Part shown: positions 2,817 through 45,730 of the stretch, one piece after another | How positions within the stretch are numbered: position 1 is the first letter of the stretch | How the letters are laid out: the number at the start of each line of letters is the position of its first letter | Source: an uncultured Ignavibacteria bacterium | Lineage (GTDB): Bacteria; Zixibacteria; MSB-5A5; SM1-73 | Direction of reading: 5' to 3' | NCBI GenBank assembly: GCA_964348415.1 | Contig: CAYGCR010000002.1 | Span: forward strand, 25,069-89,068 | DNA length: 64,000 nt | Notes under the pieces: generated by a model | What the model saw: the letters and a program-made list of their open reading frames with translations, nothing else | Database searches by the model: none | Told to the model about the DNA's origin: nothing | Translations under genes and position numbers: made by a program

Positions 2817-3341
2817 ATGGGCTTGGAGGAATATATACCGCGAGGCATACTACTGACCGCCGTTGACAAGATGGTCAACTGGGCCAGGAGTTCATCTGTC
2901 TGGCCCCTGGCTTTCGGAACAGCTTGCTGTTCGCTAGAGGCGCTTGCCACATTCGCTTCCCGCTTCGACATGGCGCGATTCGGGATGGAAGTCTATCGGG
3001 CATCTCCCCGGCAGGCCGACCTGATGATCGTTGCCGGACGCGTTTCCAACAAGATGGCTCCGGTTGTCAGGACACTCTATGAGCAGATGACCGAGCCCAA
3101 ATGGGTGATAGCCATGGGCGCGTGCGCGTCCACCGGTGGCGTGTTCAACAACTACGCCATCATCCAGGGCGTGGACAAGATCGTGCCGGTGGACATATAC
3201 GTTCCTGGTTGTCCGCCCAGGCCGGAGCAGCTAATCGAAGGAGTGATGAAGCTGCACAAGAAGATTCAGCGGGAGTCGGTGAGAGGGCTTAAGGTACATT
3301 CGGTGCACGGATCAACGGACGAAACGGATCGAAGGATATGA
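2817..3341 (+). CDS. nuoB: NADH-quinone oxidoreductase subunit B (20 kDa, N2 cluster), copy 1 of a tandem pair.
   Basis: Carries the CCxxE, GxCA and PGCPP cysteine motifs of NuoB/PSST: [27 protein letters not shown]. Confidence 0.9.
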
Positions 3342-3385: not shown

Positions 3386-3877
3386 GTGGGTTTAGAGGAA
3401 TACATACCGCGAGGTATACTTCTGACCACGGTCGAGAAGGCGGTCAACTGGTCGAGGAAGTCGTCGCTGTGGCCGGTCACTTTCGGGCTGGCCTGCTGCG
3501 CCATAGAGATGATGTGCACGGCCGCATCCCGCTTTGATCTGGCGCGCTTCGGCATGGAGATCTTCAGGGCTTCGCCCAGGCAGGCGGATTTGATGATCGT
3601 GTCCGGACGAGTTTCGAACAAGATGGCACCGGTGGTCAGGCTGCTTTACGATCAGATGGCGGAGCCCAAGTGGGTGATCGCCATGGGTGCCTGTGCATCC
3701 ACCGGAGGCGTGTTCAACAATTACGCCATCATCCAGGGAGTGGATAAGCTTGTGCCGGTGGATATCTATGTTCCCGGATGTCCACCCAGGCCCGAGCAGT
3801 TGATCGAGGGTATTATGAAATTACACTCCAAGATCATGAAGGAGTCGCTGAAGCGATCAATGGATGAAACGGACTAA
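3386..3877 (+). CDS. nuoB: NADH-quinone oxidoreductase subunit B, copy 2 of the tandem pair.
   Basis: GTG start with a GAAGG RBS. All three NuoB cysteine motifs are present ([22 protein letters not shown]). About 80% aa identity to copy 1, with many synonymous nucleotide differences. Confidence 0.9.
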
Positions 3878-7555: not shown

Positions 7556-7590
7556 GTCCGTCAACAGATTGAACGGATTAAACGGATAGC

Positions 7591-10775: not shown

Positions 10776-11234
10776 ATGTTTAAGGTTTTGAAAACGATAT
10801 TCTGGGCGATACCAAGGGGGTTGTCGGTGACTCTCAAGTACCTGCTTTCCAAGCCCACTACGGTGAGATACCCGGAGCAAAAACTGACACTTTCCCCGCG
10901 ATATCGGGGACTTCATTACCTGGAGAGACACGAGGACGGATCTGAGAAGTGCGTTTGCTGCGGCCTGTGTGCCGCGGCTTGCCCCTCCGGCTGCATCTAT
11001 ATGGAGCCAGCGGAAAACGAGTTCGGCGAAAGATATGCCAAAGTCTACGAGATAAACGAGCTCAGATGCATCTTCTGCGGATACTGCCAGGAGGCCTGTC
11101 CCAAGGAGGCGATATTCTTGGGAAAGGAGTACGAGTTCTCCAATGACAGACGGGATAAGCTAATATACAGCAAAGACGATCTGTTGGTTGCTTATCCCAA
11201 GAAAGCCTCGACGAACCGAACGGTCAACGGATGA
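10776..11234 (+). CDS. nuoI: NADH-quinone oxidoreductase subunit I (2x 4Fe-4S ferredoxin).
   Basis: Two CxxCxxCxxxCP motifs (CVCCGLCAAACP and CIFCGYCQEACP) and PRYRG near the N-terminus. I prefer the ATG at 10776 over the track start at 10689, which would overlap nuoH by 67 nt. Confidence 0.85.
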   Translation: MFKVLKTIFWAIPRGLSVTLKYLLSKPTTVRYPEQKLTLSPRYRGLHYLERHEDGSEKCVCCGLCAAACPSGCIYMEPAENEFGERYAKVYEINELRCIFCGYCQEACPKEAIFLGKEYEFSNDRRDKLIYSKDDLLVAYPKKASTNRTVNG

Positions 11235-11256
11235 AACGGATTGAACGGATGAGAAG

Positions 11257-17990: not shown

Positions 17991-18104
17991 TAATCAGAGC
18001 AACGGAGATCGCCGAACCTTCCGGAAGATCAGCGCTGGAAATTCCCGGGCCCGGAGCACTGCGGACTCTTCGCTTCGCCGGGAGTGATATGAAGAAGCGT
18101 GGTT

Positions 18105-18130
18105 GCCCAATTATTGGGCCCTCTTTTTTG
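18105..18130 (+). terminator. Rho-independent terminator candidate: GCCCAA-TTA-TTGGGC stem-loop followed by a T6 run.
   Basis: Perfect 6-bp GC-rich stem followed by CCTCTTTTTTG on the plus strand. No U-run is present on the minus-strand reading. Confidence 0.5.
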
Positions 18131-18319
18131 TCGATGAATCGAGCAACAACGTCGACAAGCTCTTTGTGGATGCCATCCCAGAAAGGTATCTGGAATCTAC
18201 AACAGGAAGGCCGTAGGATGCGGGTGAGGGGTCCAACCCTTGTACAATGAGACTTAATCTACGAGTCAAAGGGATTGAGCGTGATAACGGATTAAACGGA
18301 TAGAACGGACGAACGAAAA

Positions 18320-40019: not shown

Positions 40020-41219
40020 TTGCCAGTTTTCACCTATAAGGGAAGGACGTCGGCGGGAACTCAGGTTCAGGGTGAGCTGAGGGCAAAAAACCGAGCTGAA
40101 TTGGAGAGGGTCTTGAGGAACAGGAAAATCCTGGTTTCTCACATCTCCACCAAGCCTTCCCAGGTAAGCATAAGAATTGGGTCCGGAATAAAGAAGGTGC
40201 ACATCTCCAGGTTCACCCGGCAATTCGCCACCATGATCGGGGCCGGACTCCCCATGGTGCAGTGTCTGGAGATATTATCCCAGCAAATGGAATCAGCACA
40301 ACTGAGGAAGATCATCAGCGATGTAAAGGAGAGCGTGCAGTCCGGAACCACTCTGGCCGAAGCTTTGTCCCGGCATAAGAAAGTCTTCGATGATCTTTAT
40401 GTCAACATGGTGGACGCAGGTGAGATCGGAGGCGCTCTGGACGTCATTCTGGTACGCCTGGCCACATATCGGGAAAAGGCCGATGCCCTGGCCCGCAAGG
40501 TTAAAGGGGCGCTAATCTATCCGGCGGTGGTGATGACTGTGGCCATAGCGGTGACCTTTATCATGCTGACTTACATAGTTCCCATCTTCGCCAAAATGTT
40601 TCATGGTCTGGGTGCGGAGCTACCCGGTCCTACCAGATTCGTCCTCTCTTTGAGCGGCTTTCTCAGAGGTAACATACTGACCGGGTTGGTGTTGCTAATC
40701 CTGGTGATAGTCGGATACAGATTCTATTCCAAGACTGATCGGGGCAAATACAATATTGACGCCCTGAAGCTGAAAATCCCGCTTATCGGAGACCTGATCA
40801 GGAAAAGCTCCATCTCAAGGTTTTCGCGGACCCTGGGAACCCTGATCTCATCCGGTGTTCCCATCCTGGATGCTCTGGAGATAACCGCTCGCGCTTCTGG
40901 CAACCGGGTGATACATGATGCCATAAAGAGGTCGGTTCTGTCCATCGCAGAAGGAGAGACAATAACGCAACCTCTGAGACAGTGCGGGGTCTTCCCTCCC
41001 ATGGTTACTCAGATGATTTCCGTCGGAGAAAAGACCGGCGGCCTGGATGACATGCTTTCCAAGATCGCTGACTTTTATGACGAAGAGGTGGATGCTGCGG
41101 TGGCGGCGTTAACCTCCATCATCGAGCCGGTGATAATTGTGTTCATGGGAATTGTGGTCGGAGGAATCCTGATAGCCATGTATCTCCCAATGTTCGAGAT
41201 CATTGGCAAGATCCAGTAA
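40020..41219 (+). CDS. pilC: Type IV pilus inner-membrane platform protein PilC, of the GspF family.
   Basis: Duplicated GspF domains with 3 TM helices, about 400 aa. It lies immediately downstream of pilB and pilT. Confidence 0.85.
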   Translation: MPVFTYKGRTSAGTQVQGELRAKNRAELERVLRNRKILVSHISTKPSQVSIRIGSGIKKVHISRFTRQFATMIGAGLPMVQCLEILSQQMESAQLRKIISDVKESVQSGTTLAEALSRHKKVFDDLYVNMVDAGEIGGALDVILVRLATYREKADALARKVKGALIYPAVVMTVAIAVTFIMLTYIVPIFAKMFHGLGAELPGPTRFVLSLSGFLRGNILTGLVLLILVIVGYRFYSKTDRGKYNIDALKLKIPLIGDLIRKSSISRFSRTLGTLISSGVPILDALEITARASGNRVIHDAIKRSVLSIAEGETITQPLRQCGVFPPMVTQMISVGEKTGGLDDMLSKIADFYDEEVDAAVAALTSIIEPVIIVFMGIVVGGILIAMYLPMFEIIGKIQ

Positions 41220-41365: not shown

Positions 41366-43225
41366 ATGAACAGAAGAACGTGGTTTCATTTTTTGAGAAA
41401 GCTCAACGCCGGACTTGAGCAGACATTTTTCGGAAGGGACCGAAACGGCAAGCAAATACAGAGGTATGCGAGCAAGTCAGAGGTCTCCCTCTCCAGAATC
41501 CCCTGGTTTCTGATATCCCGCCTTTCCATATTTGTCCTCTTACTGATAATTGTGGTTCTGTTTTTCCAGATGCCGGATTCTCTGGTCCTTGCCTTCACCA
41601 CCTACTCCTTCATAACCCTGGCTCTTCTTCTGCTCATTGCGTTTGATCTGAAGCAAACTTATCATCTGCTGTTCAGTGCCGTAGTTGTTTTGCAGCTGAT
41701 TCTGGAGATCATAGTCGAAACCGGGTTGGTACATCACACCGGAGGCATGGGCAGTCCCTTTGCCGTCCTTTTTGTTTTGACTATACTATCCGCAAGTCTG
41801 GCTTACGGCTTAGTCGGAAGCGTGTGTATGGCCGGCTTGTCCAGCCTGGCATACGCCTCTGTCCTGTGGGTTGAGGAAGGTTTGGAACTATCTTTTAAAG
41901 GCCTCCTTTACGCTAGTGATGCTTCATTCTATGAAGCATTTCTCTACATCTGCACCTTCTTTTTGGTGGCTTTCATAAGTGGCTATCTGACGCAAAGATT
42001 GAAAGCAAAGGGCCAGGAGCTGTGGACTGCTTCCCTGGAATTGGACAAAATAAAGGCGGATACAGACGAGATACTAAGACACCTGAAAAGCGGCCTCATT
42101 ACGATCGACGCCTGGGGCAGGATTGTTTATTTCAACCGGGCAGCAGAGGAGATATTGGGATATTCCGAAAGCGAGGTAAAAGGGAGAGACTGCCGGGAGG
42201 TATTCCGGCAAAGGATGCCTCAGCTGGCAGAAAAAATAATTCAGGTGATAAAGCTCAACGAGGAACATGCCAGGGGTCTGCTTTATATCGAGGACAAAAA
42301 CGGGCGAAAGATTCCCATAGGCATAAGCACTTCCATTCTGGGGGACACGGAAACGGGCGTGAGAGGTGTGATCGCCATATTCCAGGATATAAGCGAGGCC
42401 ATGAAGCTGGAGGAGAGAATCCGGGTGGCCGACAAGCTGGCTGCAGTTGGCGAACTCTCTGCCGGAATCGCCCACGAGATACGAAATCCTTTGGCCTCTA
42501 TCTCAGGATCGGTGGAAGTTTTGAAGGAGGAGCTTGCCCTGTCCCGGGAGAATCGAAATCTTCTGGACCTGGTAATCAAAGAGACAGACAGGCTGAATCG
42601 GATTGTGACTGATTTTCTGACTTATGCCCGCATCGGCCCCTCGTTGTTAGGCAAAGTGGAGTTGCTGCATCTCCTGGATGACGTCATAGAGATTGCGAGG
42701 AAGCATCCTTGCTATAAGGAAAGTGTCTCCTTTCACAAGATCTTCTCAACGCAGGTGCGATACGTGGTGGGCGAAGAAAATCAGATAAAACAGATATTCT
42801 TGAACCTGCTGGTGAATGCGCTGGAGGCCATGGAGGGCAGGTGGGGTAAGATAGTGATAAGTGATAGAAGCTTGAGTCAACTGGATAAATTCTATTTTCG
42901 GGACGAGGAGCCGGAGGAATCCGAGTGGGTGCCCATTGCGATTGTAGATGAAGGAAAAGGAATGACAGAAGAGCAAAAACAGAAGATTTTCTCCCCGTTT
43001 TATTCTGGCAAAAAAAATGGCACCGGCCTGGGGCTGGCCATAGTACAGAGGCTGGTGAACAACTTAGGCGGAAAGATAGAATTCCGCAGCCAGGAGGGTA
43101 AAGGCTCGGCTTTTGTGGTATATCTGCAGAAGTACACGAAACAGAAGGTTAAGCTCTTTCAGACAGCACCCACCGGGAATCTGGCAAACCTCGACGTTTC
43201 CACTTCGGAATTTCACCTAACCTAA
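41366..43225 (+). CDS. pilS: PilS-like membrane sensor histidine kinase: multi-TM N-terminus, PAS, HisKA, HATPase_c.
   Basis: Six TM helices in the N-terminal ~200 aa, a PAS-like region, H-box AHEIRNPL, and G1/G2 boxes (DEGKGM, GTGLGLAIV). No response-regulator gene follows. Confidence 0.75.
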   Translation: MNRRTWFHFLRKLNAGLEQTFFGRDRNGKQIQRYASKSEVSLSRIPWFLISRLSIFVLLLIIVVLFFQMPDSLVLAFTTYSFITLALLLLIAFDLKQTYHLLFSAVVVLQLILEIIVETGLVHHTGGMGSPFAVLFVLTILSASLAYGLVGSVCMAGLSSLAYASVLWVEEGLELSFKGLLYASDASFYEAFLYICTFFLVAFISGYLTQRLKAKGQELWTASLELDKIKADTDEILRHLKSGLITIDAWGRIVYFNRAAEEILGYSESEVKGRDCREVFRQRMPQLAEKIIQVIKLNEEHARGLLYIEDKNGRKIPIGISTSILGDTETGVRGVIAIFQDISEAMKLEERIRVADKLAAVGELSAGIAHEIRNPLASISGSVEVLKEELALSRENRNLLDLVIKETDRLNRIVTDFLTYARIGPSLLGKVELLHLLDDVIEIARKHPCYKESVSFHKIFSTQVRYVVGEENQIKQIFLNLLVNALEAMEGRWGKIVISDRSLSQLDKFYFRDEEPEESEWVPIAIVDEGKGMTEEQKQKIFSPFYSGKKNGTGLGLAIVQRLVNNLGGKIEFRSQEGKGSAFVVYLQKYTKQKVKLFQTAPTGNLANLDVSTSEFHLT

Positions 43226-43587: not shown

Positions 43588-44001
43588 TTGTCAACCAAAA
43601 AAAAGAAACTCAAAGCAAAGAGCATTGTAAGCCGACTGACAGGCATTTCTACTCCAGTCGGTGGGATTTCCTGGACACCACCAGTTGATGAACGGGACAA
43701 AGCAAAACGGTTGGTGACTTTTCTTGAAGATCGACGCGCTCTTTACCATCCTTATAATATGGAAGTAGCTGACTATGTTGTCGAGTCTATCCTTGAAATA
43801 CGCGAGCGGCTCACATCAGATCTCGAACATGTGAACGAATCTTCTGTCTTAGGAGAGAGTCTTATCGCAATGCGTGCAGCTTGTCGGAAATTCCTGGACA
43901 AGGTACAAAGACCACCGAGAAAAAGATATTGGTTGGGACCCGACTTCATCTACGGCCTTGGTGAACTAAGAGCATTATTCGGCATTCATGTTGCAAGATA
44001 G
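43588..44001 (+). CDS. Hypothetical protein (137 aa) with no recognisable family. It sits in a cassette-like arrangement bracketed by direct repeats.
   Basis: Strong AGGAGG RBS 7 nt upstream of the TTG start. The ORF is clean and no domain was recognised. Confidence 0.5.
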   Translation: MSTKKKKLKAKSIVSRLTGISTPVGGISWTPPVDERDKAKRLVTFLEDRRALYHPYNMEVADYVVESILEIRERLTSDLEHVNESSVLGESLIAMRAACRKFLDKVQRPPRKRYWLGPDFIYGLGELRALFGIHVAR

Positions 44002-44180
44002 GCATGTGCATACGATCTAGAACTTGAGAAAGATTTGGCCTCAATTCTTCCTGCAGAACCTGAGCTAGATAAGAGGAAGGGAAGGAGAACTAAAGCAAAG
44101 TGAATTCTCCCAACAACCCACTCGAAAGGGAAGCGGCAAAAAGGCGCCGCGCCCCTTAGCTTTGCGTTATGCGGACGAAG

Positions 44181-44254
44181 AGTTTCGTCGGTTAGATGCC
44201 CTGCGGTCCTGACAAATGAAAGTGTCAGGAGCACGGGGCTCCTGACCTACTAGG
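44181..44254 (+). repeat. Right copy of the ~60-bp direct repeat, with a perfect CAGGAGCACGGGGCTCCTG palindrome.
   Basis: AGAGTTTCGTCGGTTAGATGCCCTGCGGTCCTGACAAATGAAAGTGTCAGGAGCACGGGGCTCCTGACCTACTAG. A third copy of the palindrome, CCAGGAGCCCGGAGCTCCTGAGCTACTACC, lies at 44541..44570. Confidence 0.55.
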
Positions 44255-44651
44255 TGGCTCTCTTACCACAAGGAGCAAATTCACCATTTATGGTGAGTCT
44301 CGAACCACAACTTTAATGGTGAAAAGGATACCTCCCCCGTTATGGGAGGCAAACATATGAAACATGCACACAAACTCCCCTTGTGGGAGACGAATAATCC
44401 TTTTCCTTCGACCCTGTGTCTCAGGACGAAGTGCAGGACCGAAGGGCAGGGTGAACTCTCTTGAAGCACCGCACAACGGTTGAAAAAAATTCAAAACGAA
44501 CACCAGTAAGGTCAGTAAGGTCAGAAATACCAGAGAAGTGCCAGGAGCCCGGAGCTCCTGAGCTACTACCTAATCTCCCGCCATTGTCCGCTCCCGGACG
44601 TGTTCCTTCCTCTCCCCTGGGGGAGAGAATTAACTTGAGGGGGACATACCA

Positions 44652-45095
44652 GTCATTGCGAGCGCAGCGAAGCAATCTCCCTGGCACATCAACCGACGCT
44701 TTGAGATTGCCTCGTCGTCCCCGACAAAGGCGGCGTACTCCTCGCAATGACACTCACACGCCCGTCATTGCGAGCGTAGCGAAGCAATCTCCCTGGTACA
44801 TCAACCGACGCCTTGAGATTGCCTCGTCGCCCCCGCCAAATGCGGGGGACTTCTCGCAATGACGCTTACATACCCGTCACTGCGAGCGCAGCGAAGCAAT
44901 CTGCTTGGTACATCAACCGACGCCTTGAGATTGCCTCGTCGCCCCCGCCAAAGGCGGGGTACTCCTCGCAATCACACTTACACACCCGTCATTGCGAGCG
45001 ATAGCATAGCAATCTCCCTGGTACGTCAACCGAGGCTTTGAGATTGCTTCGTCGTCCCCGCCAAAGGCCGGGCACTCCTCGCAATGACATCAGAG
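44652..45095. repeat. Four tandem copies of a ~112-bp nested-palindromic element. Units start at 44652, 44764, 44876 and 44984.
   Basis: Unit consensus: GTCATTGCGAGCGCAGCGAAGCAATCTCCCTGGTACATCAACCGACGCCTTGAGATTGCCTCGTCGCCCCCGCCAAAGGCGGGGTACTCCTCGCAATGACACTTACACACCC. Terminal inverted repeats are GTCATTGCGAG / CTCGCAATGAC, inner ones GCAATCTC / GAGATTGC. Copies are about 85-90% identical, and the unit is contiguous with no spacers. Confidence 0.8.
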
Positions 45096-45246
45096 GTTTC
45101 TTGCACAGACGCAATGTTCTCTGTCCTTGAGCAAAAGGGCCAGGTTGAAGACCCCGCCACAGGGGCAACAGGAGGGAACTGTAGTTGCTCGATTTATCGA
45201 GCTCAATAAACGCCCAATGAATTGGGCAACTACGTTTCTTGAGCGC

Positions 45247-45280
45247 TCGAAAAAGAAGGGTGGAGCTAAAGCTCCACCCC
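45247..45280 (-). terminator. Rho-independent terminator of the ATP synthase operon.
   Basis: Minus-strand RNA: GGGUGGAGC-UUUA-GCUCCACCC followed by UUCUUUUUCG. It lies 35 nt downstream of the atpC stop. Confidence 0.7.
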
Positions 45281-45313
45281 TACAATTTCTAGCTTACAGG
45301 CTGAAAGCCTATT

Positions 45314-45730
45314 TTAGTCCTGCTCACTAAGTCGGATTGCTTTATAAAGACGGCACCTGTTTTCTGCGCGAAGCCTTGCTGCCAGAGCGCGTGCTACGTC
45401 AATCCCCTCTTCTTTTGATTTCAGCCTTCGTTTGGCCCGCTGCAGAGCTTTGGCCGCTCTCTCGTAATCTATGTCATCTACAGATTCGACTGAATGCGCC
45501 AGAATGGTAACATGATTCTTGAAGACCTCCATGAAGCCACCGCCGATGGCGAAGATCAGCTCTTGGTTTTTCTCATCTCTCACCGCTAGCTTTCCGGGAA
45601 CCAGGACGGTGATCAAAGGGGCGTGATCGGTCAGAACCCCCAGGTATCCTTCCGAGCCAGGCGCGATGATGGAGACCACCTCTTGTTCGAAGAATACTTT
45701 TTCCGGTGTCACGATACTTAAGAGATACAT
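45314..45730 (-). CDS. atpC: F1Fo ATP synthase epsilon subunit.
   Basis: 138-aa beta-sandwich plus helical hairpin. The N-terminus LSIVTPEKVFFEQEVVSIIAPGSEGYLGVL is typical. Confidence 0.85.
   Translation of the reverse strand: MYLLSIVTPEKVFFEQEVVSIIAPGSEGYLGVLTDHAPLITVLVPGKLAVRDEKNQELIFAIGGGFMEVFKNHVTILAHSVESVDDIDYERAAKALQRAKRRLKSKEEGIDVARALAARLRAENRCRLYKAIRLSEQD

Follow-up and report, generated by a model that had tools for sequence, protein, structure and literature searches.

The 64-kb window studied here (64,000 nucleotides of contig CAYGCR010000002.1, from an uncultured Ignavibacteria bacterium) carries, between the pilS gene and the atp operon, an array of four tandem palindromic units of 112 bp, and the question that this locus raises is what kind of element such an array represents. 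The evidence presented below indicates that it is, with good probability, a gene-less cluster of four inverted dimers of a hairpin repeat related to the repeats of the Ssn system. The halves of these dimers, hereafter called arms, are the repeats that flank the genes for a clade of single-domain GIY-YIG nucleases of ~95 aa, homologous to SsnA of Neisseria. We have filed the array as a 'split-stem' subtype of the Ssn / CGTC-REP kind (REP, repetitive extragenic palindromic sequence), outside the defined NTS, SRM-pattern and CGTC-1 to -4 families. This subtype is unrecognised as yet and extremely common, the underlying system having already been published in 2013 and 2025.

Architecture of the array

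Tandem Repeats Finder (TRF) delimits the array to positions 44644-45089, with a period of 112, 4.0 copies, 87% matches, 0 indels and a score of 680, thus confirming the four head-to-tail units that the initial annotation had described; pairwise identity among the units is 84.1-89.3%, and unit-to-unit divergence 11-16%. Each unit consists of a quasi-palindrome of 100 or 101 nt (u1, 44652-44751; u2, 44764-44863; u3, 44876-44975; u4, 44988-45088) with a 12-nt linker on its upstream side. The three linkers between the palindromes (Table 1) are similar to the 12 nt ahead of u1 (GGGGACATACCA), so that the duplicated block comprises the upstream flank together with the palindrome. The units are contiguous, there are no unique spacers and the linkers are themselves repeated, in agreement with the earlier view that this is not a CRISPR array.

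The 11-bp terminal inverted repeat GTCATTGCGAG/CTCGCAATGAC noted previously is exact in u1, u2 and u4, and carries one mismatch on each side in u3 (GTCACTGCGAG / CTCGCAATCAC). As for the internal elements attributed to each unit, the inner inverted repeat GCAATCTC/GAGATTGC is indeed found in all four (in u3 as the variant GCAATCTG), whereas the GC-rich hairpin is exact in u3 only and has near-variants in u1, u2 and u4; point changes within the inverted repeats or the GC hairpin occur in u1, u3 and u4. The long-hairpin folding expected for each unit was borne out on folding, every unit on both strands being more stable than its shuffled counterparts (z from -4.3 to -7.3, with 0 of 200 shuffles equally stable).

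Closer parsing evidences that the window units are heterodimers in which the left arm is short (28-29 nt) and the right arm long (49 nt), the latter containing a nested GC hairpin. The tag GTC is kept in seven of the eight arms, the right arm of u3 having GTG, and it is preceded by C, T or A. A cytosine directly follows the stem (GCAAT-C) in all eight, and the arm tails read CTC in seven cases and CTG in one. Three arms (u3 left, u3 right and u4 left) are altered in tag, stem or CGAA block, and five are still consensus-like. The 28-nt core occurs at this single locus within the window (chance expectation 0.00), and no further arms are present in the 64 kb outside the array.

A widespread family of split-stem arms

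We have carried out a scan for related elements with the pattern GTCATTGCGAG-N(70-90)-CTCGCAATGAC, which fixes the outer repeat, in one genome per GTDB species. The family so defined comprises at least 127 instances at no fewer than 120 genome loci in more than 10 phyla, and the same pattern is found in 42 viral contigs (IMG/VR). The first 80 loci listed fall in Alpha- and Gammaproteobacteria, Bacteroidota, Chloroflexota, Desulfobacterota, Planctomycetota, the Candidate Phyla Radiation (CPR), Bacillota, Campylobacterota, Rickettsiales, Methylomirabilota, Ignavibacteriota and Thermodesulfovibrionales. The arm is also carried by plasmids of Novosphingobium, Methylobacterium, Methylosinus, Legionella and a cyanobacterium.

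Nearly all of the 127 instances have a common block order: GTCATTGCGAG, a variable small hairpin or none, CG(AA/TG/CG)GCAATC(C/T)N, a variable centre and the mirror image of these blocks. The arm can thus be written as (C/T)GTC ATTGC GAG (GA)[hairpin](GA) CG(AA|TG|CG) GCAAT C(TC|CA), with a length of 28-49 nt, in which a conserved internal loop, GAG...CG(AA/TG/CG), and, where present, a variable hairpin lie within a 5-bp stem, ATTGC/GCAAT. In 121 of 130 family members a pyrimidine (Y) precedes the repeat, and in equally many a purine (R) follows it, which makes the true inverted repeat 12 bp long, (C/T)GTCATTGCGAG; position -1 is C in 73 of these members, T in 48 and A in 4. Nearly all tails start with C (CTC 103, CCA 83, CCC 29, and others). 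Heterodimers such as those of the window are frequent, a GAA arm being combined with a GTG arm in 22 of 140 cases for example, and arms occur also singly and as direct partial duplications.

The arm stem covaries. Double changes that restore Watson-Crick pairing number 19 and those that do not restore it 2, the restored pairs being of the types ATCGC/GCGAT, ACTGC/GCAGT, ATGGC/GCCAT and GTTGC/GCAAC at nine or more loci. Clearly, the element is not a peculiarity of this locus lacking structure-preserving covariation, an outcome that the initial annotation had allowed for, but a member of a pan-bacterial family with a covarying stem. The ATTGC split-stem arm is probably among the most widespread short repeats of bacterial genomes, and its translations (...HCEERSDEAI..., ...LLRFARNDR..., ...DCFVVPPRND...) are common in databases as spurious small open reading frames (ORFs).

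The arm subtypes include ATTGC, ATTCT, ATCCT, ATTCC and ATTCCCGC. In locus L049 (L numbers denote the loci fetched for comparison) a sister-type arm (GTCATTCCGAGCAAAGCGAGGAATC) is nested in the centre of an ATTGC-type dimer at 2066-2170, which indicates that different arm subtypes can coexist and nest.

Association with a small GIY-YIG nuclease

When the ORFs lying within 1.2 kb of the elements at 120 loci were clustered, the sole shared neighbour was an ORF of ~95 aa, present at three loci and corresponding to a GIY-YIG catalytic domain (PF01541, E 1e-12 to 1e-15). All three loci lie inside the densest arm clusters, and such density is reached in only 12 of 162 loci. The association was also analysed in reverse, using 80 metagenome loci picked by the ~95-aa GIY-YIG protein alone and allowing at most one mismatch in the arm head. 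An arm head was found at most 300 nt from the ORF in 68 of these 80 loci, and arm density amounts to 5.3/kb in the ORF flanks in comparison with 0.21/kb elsewhere, an enrichment of ~25-fold. The nearest arms are at a median distance of ~50 nt upstream and ~20 nt downstream of the ORF. In 23 of the 59 loci with complete flanks the gene is bracketed by one arm on the + strand and one on the - strand, giving a unit with a median size of 412 bp (361-661), and in this arm-ssn-arm arrangement the gene takes exactly the position of the 23-nt spacer of the window units. In 13 loci the ssn gene stands between two complete dimers, and in 9 it is flanked by other, related repeat types.

The nuclease is related to a gene of N. 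gonorrhoeae (44% identity, E 3e-19, 94% query coverage in tblastn) which is flanked by ten canonical NTS repeats within ~900 nt and hence corresponds to the published ssnA locus; the match lies within the limits by which Chenal et al. define homologues (E<1e-10 over >75% of the length; PMC11893778). The N. gonorrhoeae locus was seen in PLSDB records NZ_CP119140.1 and NZ_CP119142.1, two 'plasmid' records of 2.17 Mb that have the size of a chromosome and are mislabelled. Further homologues are found in Sinorhizobium, Sphingobium, Novosphingobium aromaticivorans and Azospirillum lipoferum, all of them hosts of CGTC REPs. Around a homologue from Planktothrix (65% identity) the arms are of a sister type, GTCATTCTGAG...GAAGAATCTC, which indicates that nuclease and arm diversify together. 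A search of the PDB by sequence gave for the nuclease only a weak match, to the UPF0213 protein BH0048 (1zg2, E 0.02).

Tandem arrays like that of the window are also present beside ssn genes, with a period of 137 and 4.3 copies in L199 and a period of 133 and 3.9 copies in L239. Arrays are thus a family trait, and the window array is unlikely to be an assembly artefact.

The Planktothrix gene, on the P. agardhii plasmid NZ_LR882964.1 (L245, 17350-20613), has a type IIL MmeI restriction-modification gene on one side and the DISARM gene drmA on the other, a setting that is a defence island, and is also flanked by three copies of a short tandem repeat, gttctcctgtgctgtcattctga.

The properties of the Neisseria system give a frame for these observations. 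Chenal et al. (Nat Commun 2025; PMC11893778) described small single-domain GIY-YIG proteins (Ssn, cd10448) flanked by NTS or 'SRM' repeats. SsnA binds the repeat hairpin as single-stranded DNA (ssDNA) only, not as double-stranded DNA or RNA, and cleaves a few nt 5' of it; cutting depends on the GTC, and binding on the C that follows the palindrome (PMC11893778). The biochemistry covers SsnA and three homologues, the Neisseria system modulates transformation, and 81% of the repeat-rich genomes in the published survey encode an Ssn (PMC11893778). The repeat-ssn-repeat layout was likened, as a hypothesis, to an insertion sequence (IS) (PMC11893778).

Genomic behaviour of the family

Target-site duplications are lacking in 112 of 130 copies, and duplications are no commoner than at control positions; with regard to a preferred target, the same 130 copies reveal no more than an A/C-rich left flank and the Y/R pair that extends the palindrome. 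An enrichment of inverted repeats in the flanks (11 of 130, vs ~1.6%) concerns a minority of copies, and insertion into pre-existing hairpin loops was accordingly rejected as a rule. Some copies are found inside longer perfect inverted repeats, of at least 20 nt in L066 (1310-1461) and L069 (5727-5872) and of 9 nt in L015, which recalls the 'REP dimers inside larger palindromes' of H. neapolitanus (Di Nocera et al.; PMC3733652).

With respect to genes, the copies are biased towards 3' ends (119 vs 72 neighbours, median distance 57 vs 128 nt) and lie between convergent genes more often than between divergent ones (27 vs 8). Relative to the upstream gene the two strands are equally represented (36 vs 37) and G.U pairs number 143 vs 158, so that there is no bias of the RNA type; the lack of a preference for the gene-sense strand argues for an element acting at the DNA rather than at the RNA level. 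Copies are also inserted within genes. In ychF of Candidatus Daviesbacteria (CPR; L055 2181-2276) an in-frame copy of 96 nt (C + 94 nt + G) adds 32 extra codons (TSLRDHEVAKQSNEQRSSSGEIATGSLSPRNDG) that have no counterpart in the orthologues of L057 and L042, and in Helicobacter canis the ORF of an ABC ATPase reads through a 112-nt copy (L067 2644-2755).

Duplication of upstream sequence has also been observed. In L165, ~55 nt of host sequence (...caccggagatcgtgcagcaattgatcgatgaactgatgcagcatcaaccgaaat), which seem to be the 3' end of the upstream gene, stand as a direct repeat on either side of the arm-ssn-arm unit (~2835-2945 and 3510-3570). In L239 ~40 nt of upstream flank are repeated with each dimer, and the window linkers likewise repeat the flank of u1. 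Upstream-flank duplication of this kind may be a mark of the way in which Ssn-type elements insert or amplify.

Proposed mechanism and points against it

By analogy with SsnA and its three characterised homologues, the array could operate as follows. Whenever the DNA becomes single-stranded, in replication, transformation, conjugation or repair, each arm would fold into a hairpin, which a cognate Ssn encoded elsewhere in the genome would bind. The cut, if made a few nt 5' of the GTC tag as by the Neisseria enzyme, would fall in the 12-nt linkers and in the outer flanks of the array. The outcome could be a local control of ssDNA recombination or uptake, or else the excision of dimers and their spread as non-autonomous elements. 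The four-unit array itself would have grown by tandem duplication of the block formed by upstream flank and dimer, as suggested by the linkers that repeat the sequence preceding u1, and would then have diverged by 11-16%.

A number of observations weigh against assigning the array to the Ssn system and against this mechanism. No ssn gene was detected in the 64-kb window by tblastn, profile search or lenient flank search. The short arm alone makes only a weak hairpin, with -2.7 kcal/mol (z ~0) vs -9.0 kcal/mol for the canonical NTS (the long arm reaches -10.9), and the enzyme may for this reason recognise something else, such as an arm-arm duplex or a junction. The published SRM pattern HGTCWYN(0-2)YYVSBRHN(0-5)WNVSBRGN(0-2)RNCYNB, which matches the NTS consensus used as control, recovers 0 of 723 exact arm heads and gives no match in the window. 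The 80 protein-selected loci are the closest relatives of the arm-adjacent proteins, and the association so covers this clade and not all GIY-YIG proteins; the positional statistics, for their part, rest on crude ORF calls. Binding and cleavage of ssDNA at split-stem arms are extrapolated from the Neisseria enzyme. Finally, the degraded arms u3 left, u3 right and u4 left indicate that the array may be partly or wholly inert, and, judging from their sequences, two or three of the eight arms probably carry disabling changes.

In respect to mobility, the gene-less dimers of ~100 bp, those of the window included, may possibly be mobile without being autonomous, Ssn moving them in trans; the arm-ssn-arm unit of ~412 bp would then be the autonomous element and the 95-aa GIY-YIG ssDNA nuclease a 'transposase' that would act on hairpins without target-site duplication. 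We put this forward tentatively, as a conjecture that has the odds against it. If true, the ~412-bp unit would be among the smallest known autonomous elements, and the model would account for the CGTC-REP, RPE and dRS3 repeats, left as 'orphans' in 2013 for want of a mobilising enzyme, as well as for the near-identical arms of viral contigs and of over 10 phyla. To the insertion-sequence hypothesis of Chenal et al. the present data add the gene-in-dimer geometry with a gene-less counterpart of identical ends, the clean in-frame insertions in conserved genes and the co-diversification of arm type and nuclease.

Alternative explanations

An alternative that touches only the present-day activity of the array, and is thus a sub-case of its assignment to the Ssn system, is that of an inert relic, in which Ssn-type repeats were amplified by slippage or unequal crossing-over, the cognate nuclease was lost and the array now lies idle. 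The lack of ssn and of further arms within 64 kb is what such a relic would leave, as are the divergence of the units, the three altered arms and the linkers that duplicate the upstream flank, the latter being expected from tandem duplication. Against this, five arms remain consensus-like, none of the eight has lost the C on which SsnA binding critically depends, 64 kb make up only a small part of a genome, and 81% of repeat-rich genomes encode an Ssn (PMC11893778). We thus regard an idle array as possible, though on balance doubtful. Clearly less probable is an element acting as RNA, be it a transcribed terminator, a 3'-end stabiliser, a target of RNase III or RNase E or a small-RNA array, roles that have been put forward for classical REPs and are implied by the structured-RNA array among the early proposals. 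The strong folds of the units (z -4 to -7), the preference of copies for sites just downstream of genes and between convergent genes, the UUCG- or GNRA-like loops on many variable hairpins and the view that many REPs are transcribed (Di Nocera et al., PMC3733652) would all suit such a role. The equal use of strands and the G.U counts given above do not, and Rfam returns nothing at gathering score across the window, the units giving at E<=10 only noise (Yar_2, 13-14 bits vs a cutoff of 50 bits). In addition, no T-run follows the element, the strong atpC terminator precedes the array on the minus strand, SsnA does not bind RNA (PMC11893778), and the conserved bases lie in stems of arms that are paired with a nuclease gene and not with an RNA-processing context. 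The structured-RNA proposal is thus unsupported; that of a protein-binding array, made alongside it, is right in spirit, although the published enzyme binds its repeat as ssDNA.

The initial annotation had also likened the units to REP- or MITE-like tandem palindromes (MITE, miniature inverted-repeat transposable element), and the two halves of that comparison fare differently: the likeness to REPs stands, as inverted dimers of the CGTC-REP/Ssn class, while the classical MITE is largely refuted. As a MITE, the element would be an IS deletion derivative moved by a DDE-type transposase through its terminal inverted repeats, and indeed the 12-bp ends, the length of ~100 bp, the many dispersed copies and the insertions inside genes resemble one. 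Yet target-site duplications are missing as often as stated above, no transposase occurs among the neighbours of 120 loci, and the arms are structured hairpin modules that are also found singly or directly duplicated; the absence of target-site duplication and the fact that the only linked gene codes for the 95-aa GIY-YIG nuclease, not for a transposase of a known IS family, leave this reading unsupported and very improbable. Hardly any weight attaches to a REP or REPIN of the GTAG type mobilised by a REP-associated tyrosine transposase (RAYT, IS200/IS605-like): the hairpin-forming doublets of the present family and their clustering do resemble REPINs and bacterial interspersed mosaic elements (BIMEs), but the tag here is (C/T)GTC and not GTAG, no RAYT is found in 120 neighbourhoods and none was seen flanked by CGTC repeats (PMC3733652), and a separate GTAG doublet family, unrelated in sequence, occurs in the same window. 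Equally far-fetched is an assembly artefact, with a true locus of one unit or of another copy number. The window does come from a metagenome-type assembly, and the public contig retrieved for the neighbouring gene is a short one (3.5 kb, Logan, ERR2564004), but the unit-specific differences at 11-16% of positions are not produced by collapse or expansion, and comparable four-unit arrays exist in independent assemblies (L199, L239). An intervening sequence of 23S rRNA that carries a four-helix-bundle gene as cargo was rejected as well, no such gene and no recurring cargo being found in 'long' terminal-repeat pairs.

The locus and other features of the window

The positions of the arms, linkers and spacer of the array are collected in Table 1.

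Table 1. Components of the tandem array and their positions in the window.
Feature	Coordinates	Strand	Basis
Whole array, four tandem units (12-nt linker + 100/101-nt inverted dimer of arms)	44640-45088	.	TRF, alignment, pairwise identity
u1 left arm, short: GTC ATTGC GAG CGCAG CGAA GCAAT CTC; preceding base A (usually C/T)	44652-44679	+	arm parse
u1 central spacer; position of the ssn gene in gene-bearing relatives	44680-44702	.	comparison with L170, L171, L165, L179
u1 right arm, long: T GTC ATTGC GAG [26 nt] CGAG GCAAT CTC; nested GC hairpin partly decayed	44703-44751	-	arm parse
Linker 1, ACTCACACGCCC	44752-44763	.	sequence and alignment
u2 left arm, full consensus: C GTC ATTGC GAG CGTAG CGAA GCAAT CTC	44764-44791	+	arm parse
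u2 right arm, consensus; nested hairpin CCCCCGC-ATTTG-GCGGGGG intact	44815-44863	-	folding and arm parse
Linker 2, GCTTACATACCC	44864-44875	.	sequence and alignment
u3 left arm, damaged stem (ACTGC vs GCAAT), tail CTG	44876-44903	+	arm parse
u3 right arm, tag GTG, nested hairpin intact	44927-44975	-	arm parse
Linker 3, ACTTACACACCC	44976-44987	.	sequence and alignment
u4 left arm, 1-nt insertion, CGAA changed to CATA	44988-45016	+	alignment and arm parse
u4 right arm, tag and stem intact, nested hairpin with one mismatch	45040-45088	-	arm parse

The array is preceded on the + strand by pilC (40020-41219), pilS (41366-43225) and an ORF of the DUF6650 family (43588-44001), and followed on the - strand by atpC (45314-45730) and then atpD, atpG and atpA, so that it lies between convergent genes. 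A strong intrinsic terminator of atpC is found at 45256-45281 on the - strand, between atpC and the array. The ORF that follows pilS codes for 137 aa, and no response-regulator gene (pilR) is found in that place. The initial annotation had suggested a recombination hotspot tied to this adjacent orphan ORF, a suggestion for which we have found no supporting evidence, the DUF6650 ORF not being a recurrent neighbour of the repeat family. A lenient tblastn search for an ssn remnant beside the array returned only spurious matches to the repeat units themselves, and NCBIfam and Pfam searches of the array translations, aimed at RPE-type domain models, gave no matches.

Between the DUF6650 ORF and the array, where genes are sparse, there are several terminator-like hairpins on the - strand (44224-44246, 44329-44351, 44133-44150 and 44375-44390), and altogether 9 terminator-like sites, vs 1.6 expected, were counted in 43900-45400. 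Two small tandem repeats were also noted, at 44422-44450 (13 nt x 2.3) and at 44504-44524 (CAGTAAGGT x 2.3).

A second, unrelated repeat family is present in the window, consisting of an inverted pair of GTAG-tagged hairpins of ~55 nt, GTAGTTGC-[hairpin]...[hairpin]-GCAACTAC. Its three copies are at 45180-45236, 2121-2171 and 18099-18150, the first of them sitting between the array and the atpC terminator. These doublets display compensatory stem changes and DNA folds with z of -3.9 and -4.6, and look like a classical GTAG-type REP doublet (REPIN-like); no copies were found in the 246 fetched loci. Tandem repeats of the type AACGGAT(NN), with a unit of 9-10 nt, occur in four places (3314-3333, 7563-7587, 11226-11252 and 18286-18309), and may represent either a coding motif that recurs or a further short repeat of the dispersed type.

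Significance

The odd-looking array is thus explained as repeat DNA of an ordinary kind, selfish or accessory, belonging to a system that was characterised recently, and is not to be chased as a new RNA or CRISPR-like locus. Once taken as Ssn-associated, the split-stem arm extends the known specificity range of a nuclease family that is under development as ssDNA tools, and the published SRM search pattern misses this ATTGC arm entirely. Its recognition lets annotators mask many false ORFs and flag in-frame insertions. In addition, the gene-bearing elements of 412 bp and the gene-less ones of 100 bp, with identical ends, constitute a natural pair that could serve as a test bed for the mobility of Ssn elements.

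Comparison with known systems

The elements of the IS200/IS605 family, with their gene-less derivatives, the palindrome-associated transposable elements (PATEs), have in common with the present family the sub-terminal hairpins, which are recognised in ssDNA there and would be here, the lack of target-site duplication and the existence of small gene-less derivatives. They differ from it in that here there is no Y1 transposase or TnpB, and in that the ends are inverted copies of one arm rather than a distinct left and right end. RAYTs are encoded by a single-copy gene flanked by the same repeats, and recognition of ssDNA hairpins has been proposed for them. In the REPIN/RAYT system, which Bertels and Rainey are said to have described in 2011, the replicative unit reportedly consists of two short hairpin repeats in inverted orientation, which together can form a single long hairpin. 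The inverted doublet and an enzyme gene flanked by matching repeats are thus shared with REPINs, in contrast to the tag (YGTC here, GTAG in REPINs), the enzyme (GIY-YIG instead of HUH/Y1) and the conservation, which here crosses phyla and in REPINs is that of lineage-specific families.

Closer relatives are the CGTC-tagged REPs (CGTC-1 to -4), which have a terminal CGTC tag (or TGTC/CCTC), a stem starting with AT (A-T, T-A pairs), a loop of 4-5 nt and an unpaired tail of 3 nt, mostly CCA (Di Nocera et al., BMC Genomics 2013, PMC3733652). They are mostly inverted dimers downstream of genes, sometimes intragenic, and equivalent to dRS3 of Neisseria and RPE-4/-6 of Rickettsia; 'no dedicated transposase' was assigned to them, and no RAYT is flanked by CGTC repeats (PMC3733652). 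The present family resembles them in its CGTC/TGTC tag, its AT-starting stem, its organisation in inverted dimers that are often heterodimers, its location at 3' ends and between convergent genes, its occasional in-frame intragenic copies and the lack of a linked classical transposase. As for the short tail, the window arms have CTC or CTG, and CTC (103) and CCA (83) are the main types across the family. Unlike in CGTC-1 to -4, where a stem of 8-9 bp closes a loop of 4-5 nt, the arm stem has 5 bp and the enclosed segment ranges from 7 to more than 40 nt; the taxonomic spread is also wider, including CPR, Chloroflexota, Bacillota, Planctomycetota, Methylomirabilota, Campylobacterota and viral contigs. 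Neither ATTGCGAG nor its peptides appear in the supplementary material or in the list of intragenic repeats of Di Nocera et al. 2013 (PMC3733652), a paper whose consensus figures are not text-searchable, and searches of the literature for sequence strings of the element retrieved unrelated primers only.

The NTS/SRM repeats of the Ssn system differ from the present arms in having a stem of 8-9 bp, as compared with 5 bp (ATTGC/GCAAT), and in that here the arm stem is split by the GAG...CG(AA/TG/CG) internal loop, with an extra variable hairpin of up to ~40 nt; the window array, moreover, differs from the published ssn loci in having no ssn nearby. It is the combination of the 5-bp split stem, the weak short hairpin, the failure of the SRM pattern and the absence of the peptides from the 2013 list that sets the subtype outside the defined families. 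An NTS/SRM repeat is an inverted repeat of 20-50 nt that can fold as a hairpin in ssDNA, its GTC preceded by H (C/T/A); the arms measure 28-49 nt, and range from weak hairpins (short arm) to stable ones (long arm). What the split-stem arms share with NTS/SRM is the basic plan of the system: an inverted repeat that carries a GTC tag and has a C directly behind its stem, a gene for a GIY-YIG protein of ~95 aa flanked on both sides by the repeat, hundreds of gene-less copies often in inverted pairs or clusters, and a distribution over many phyla.

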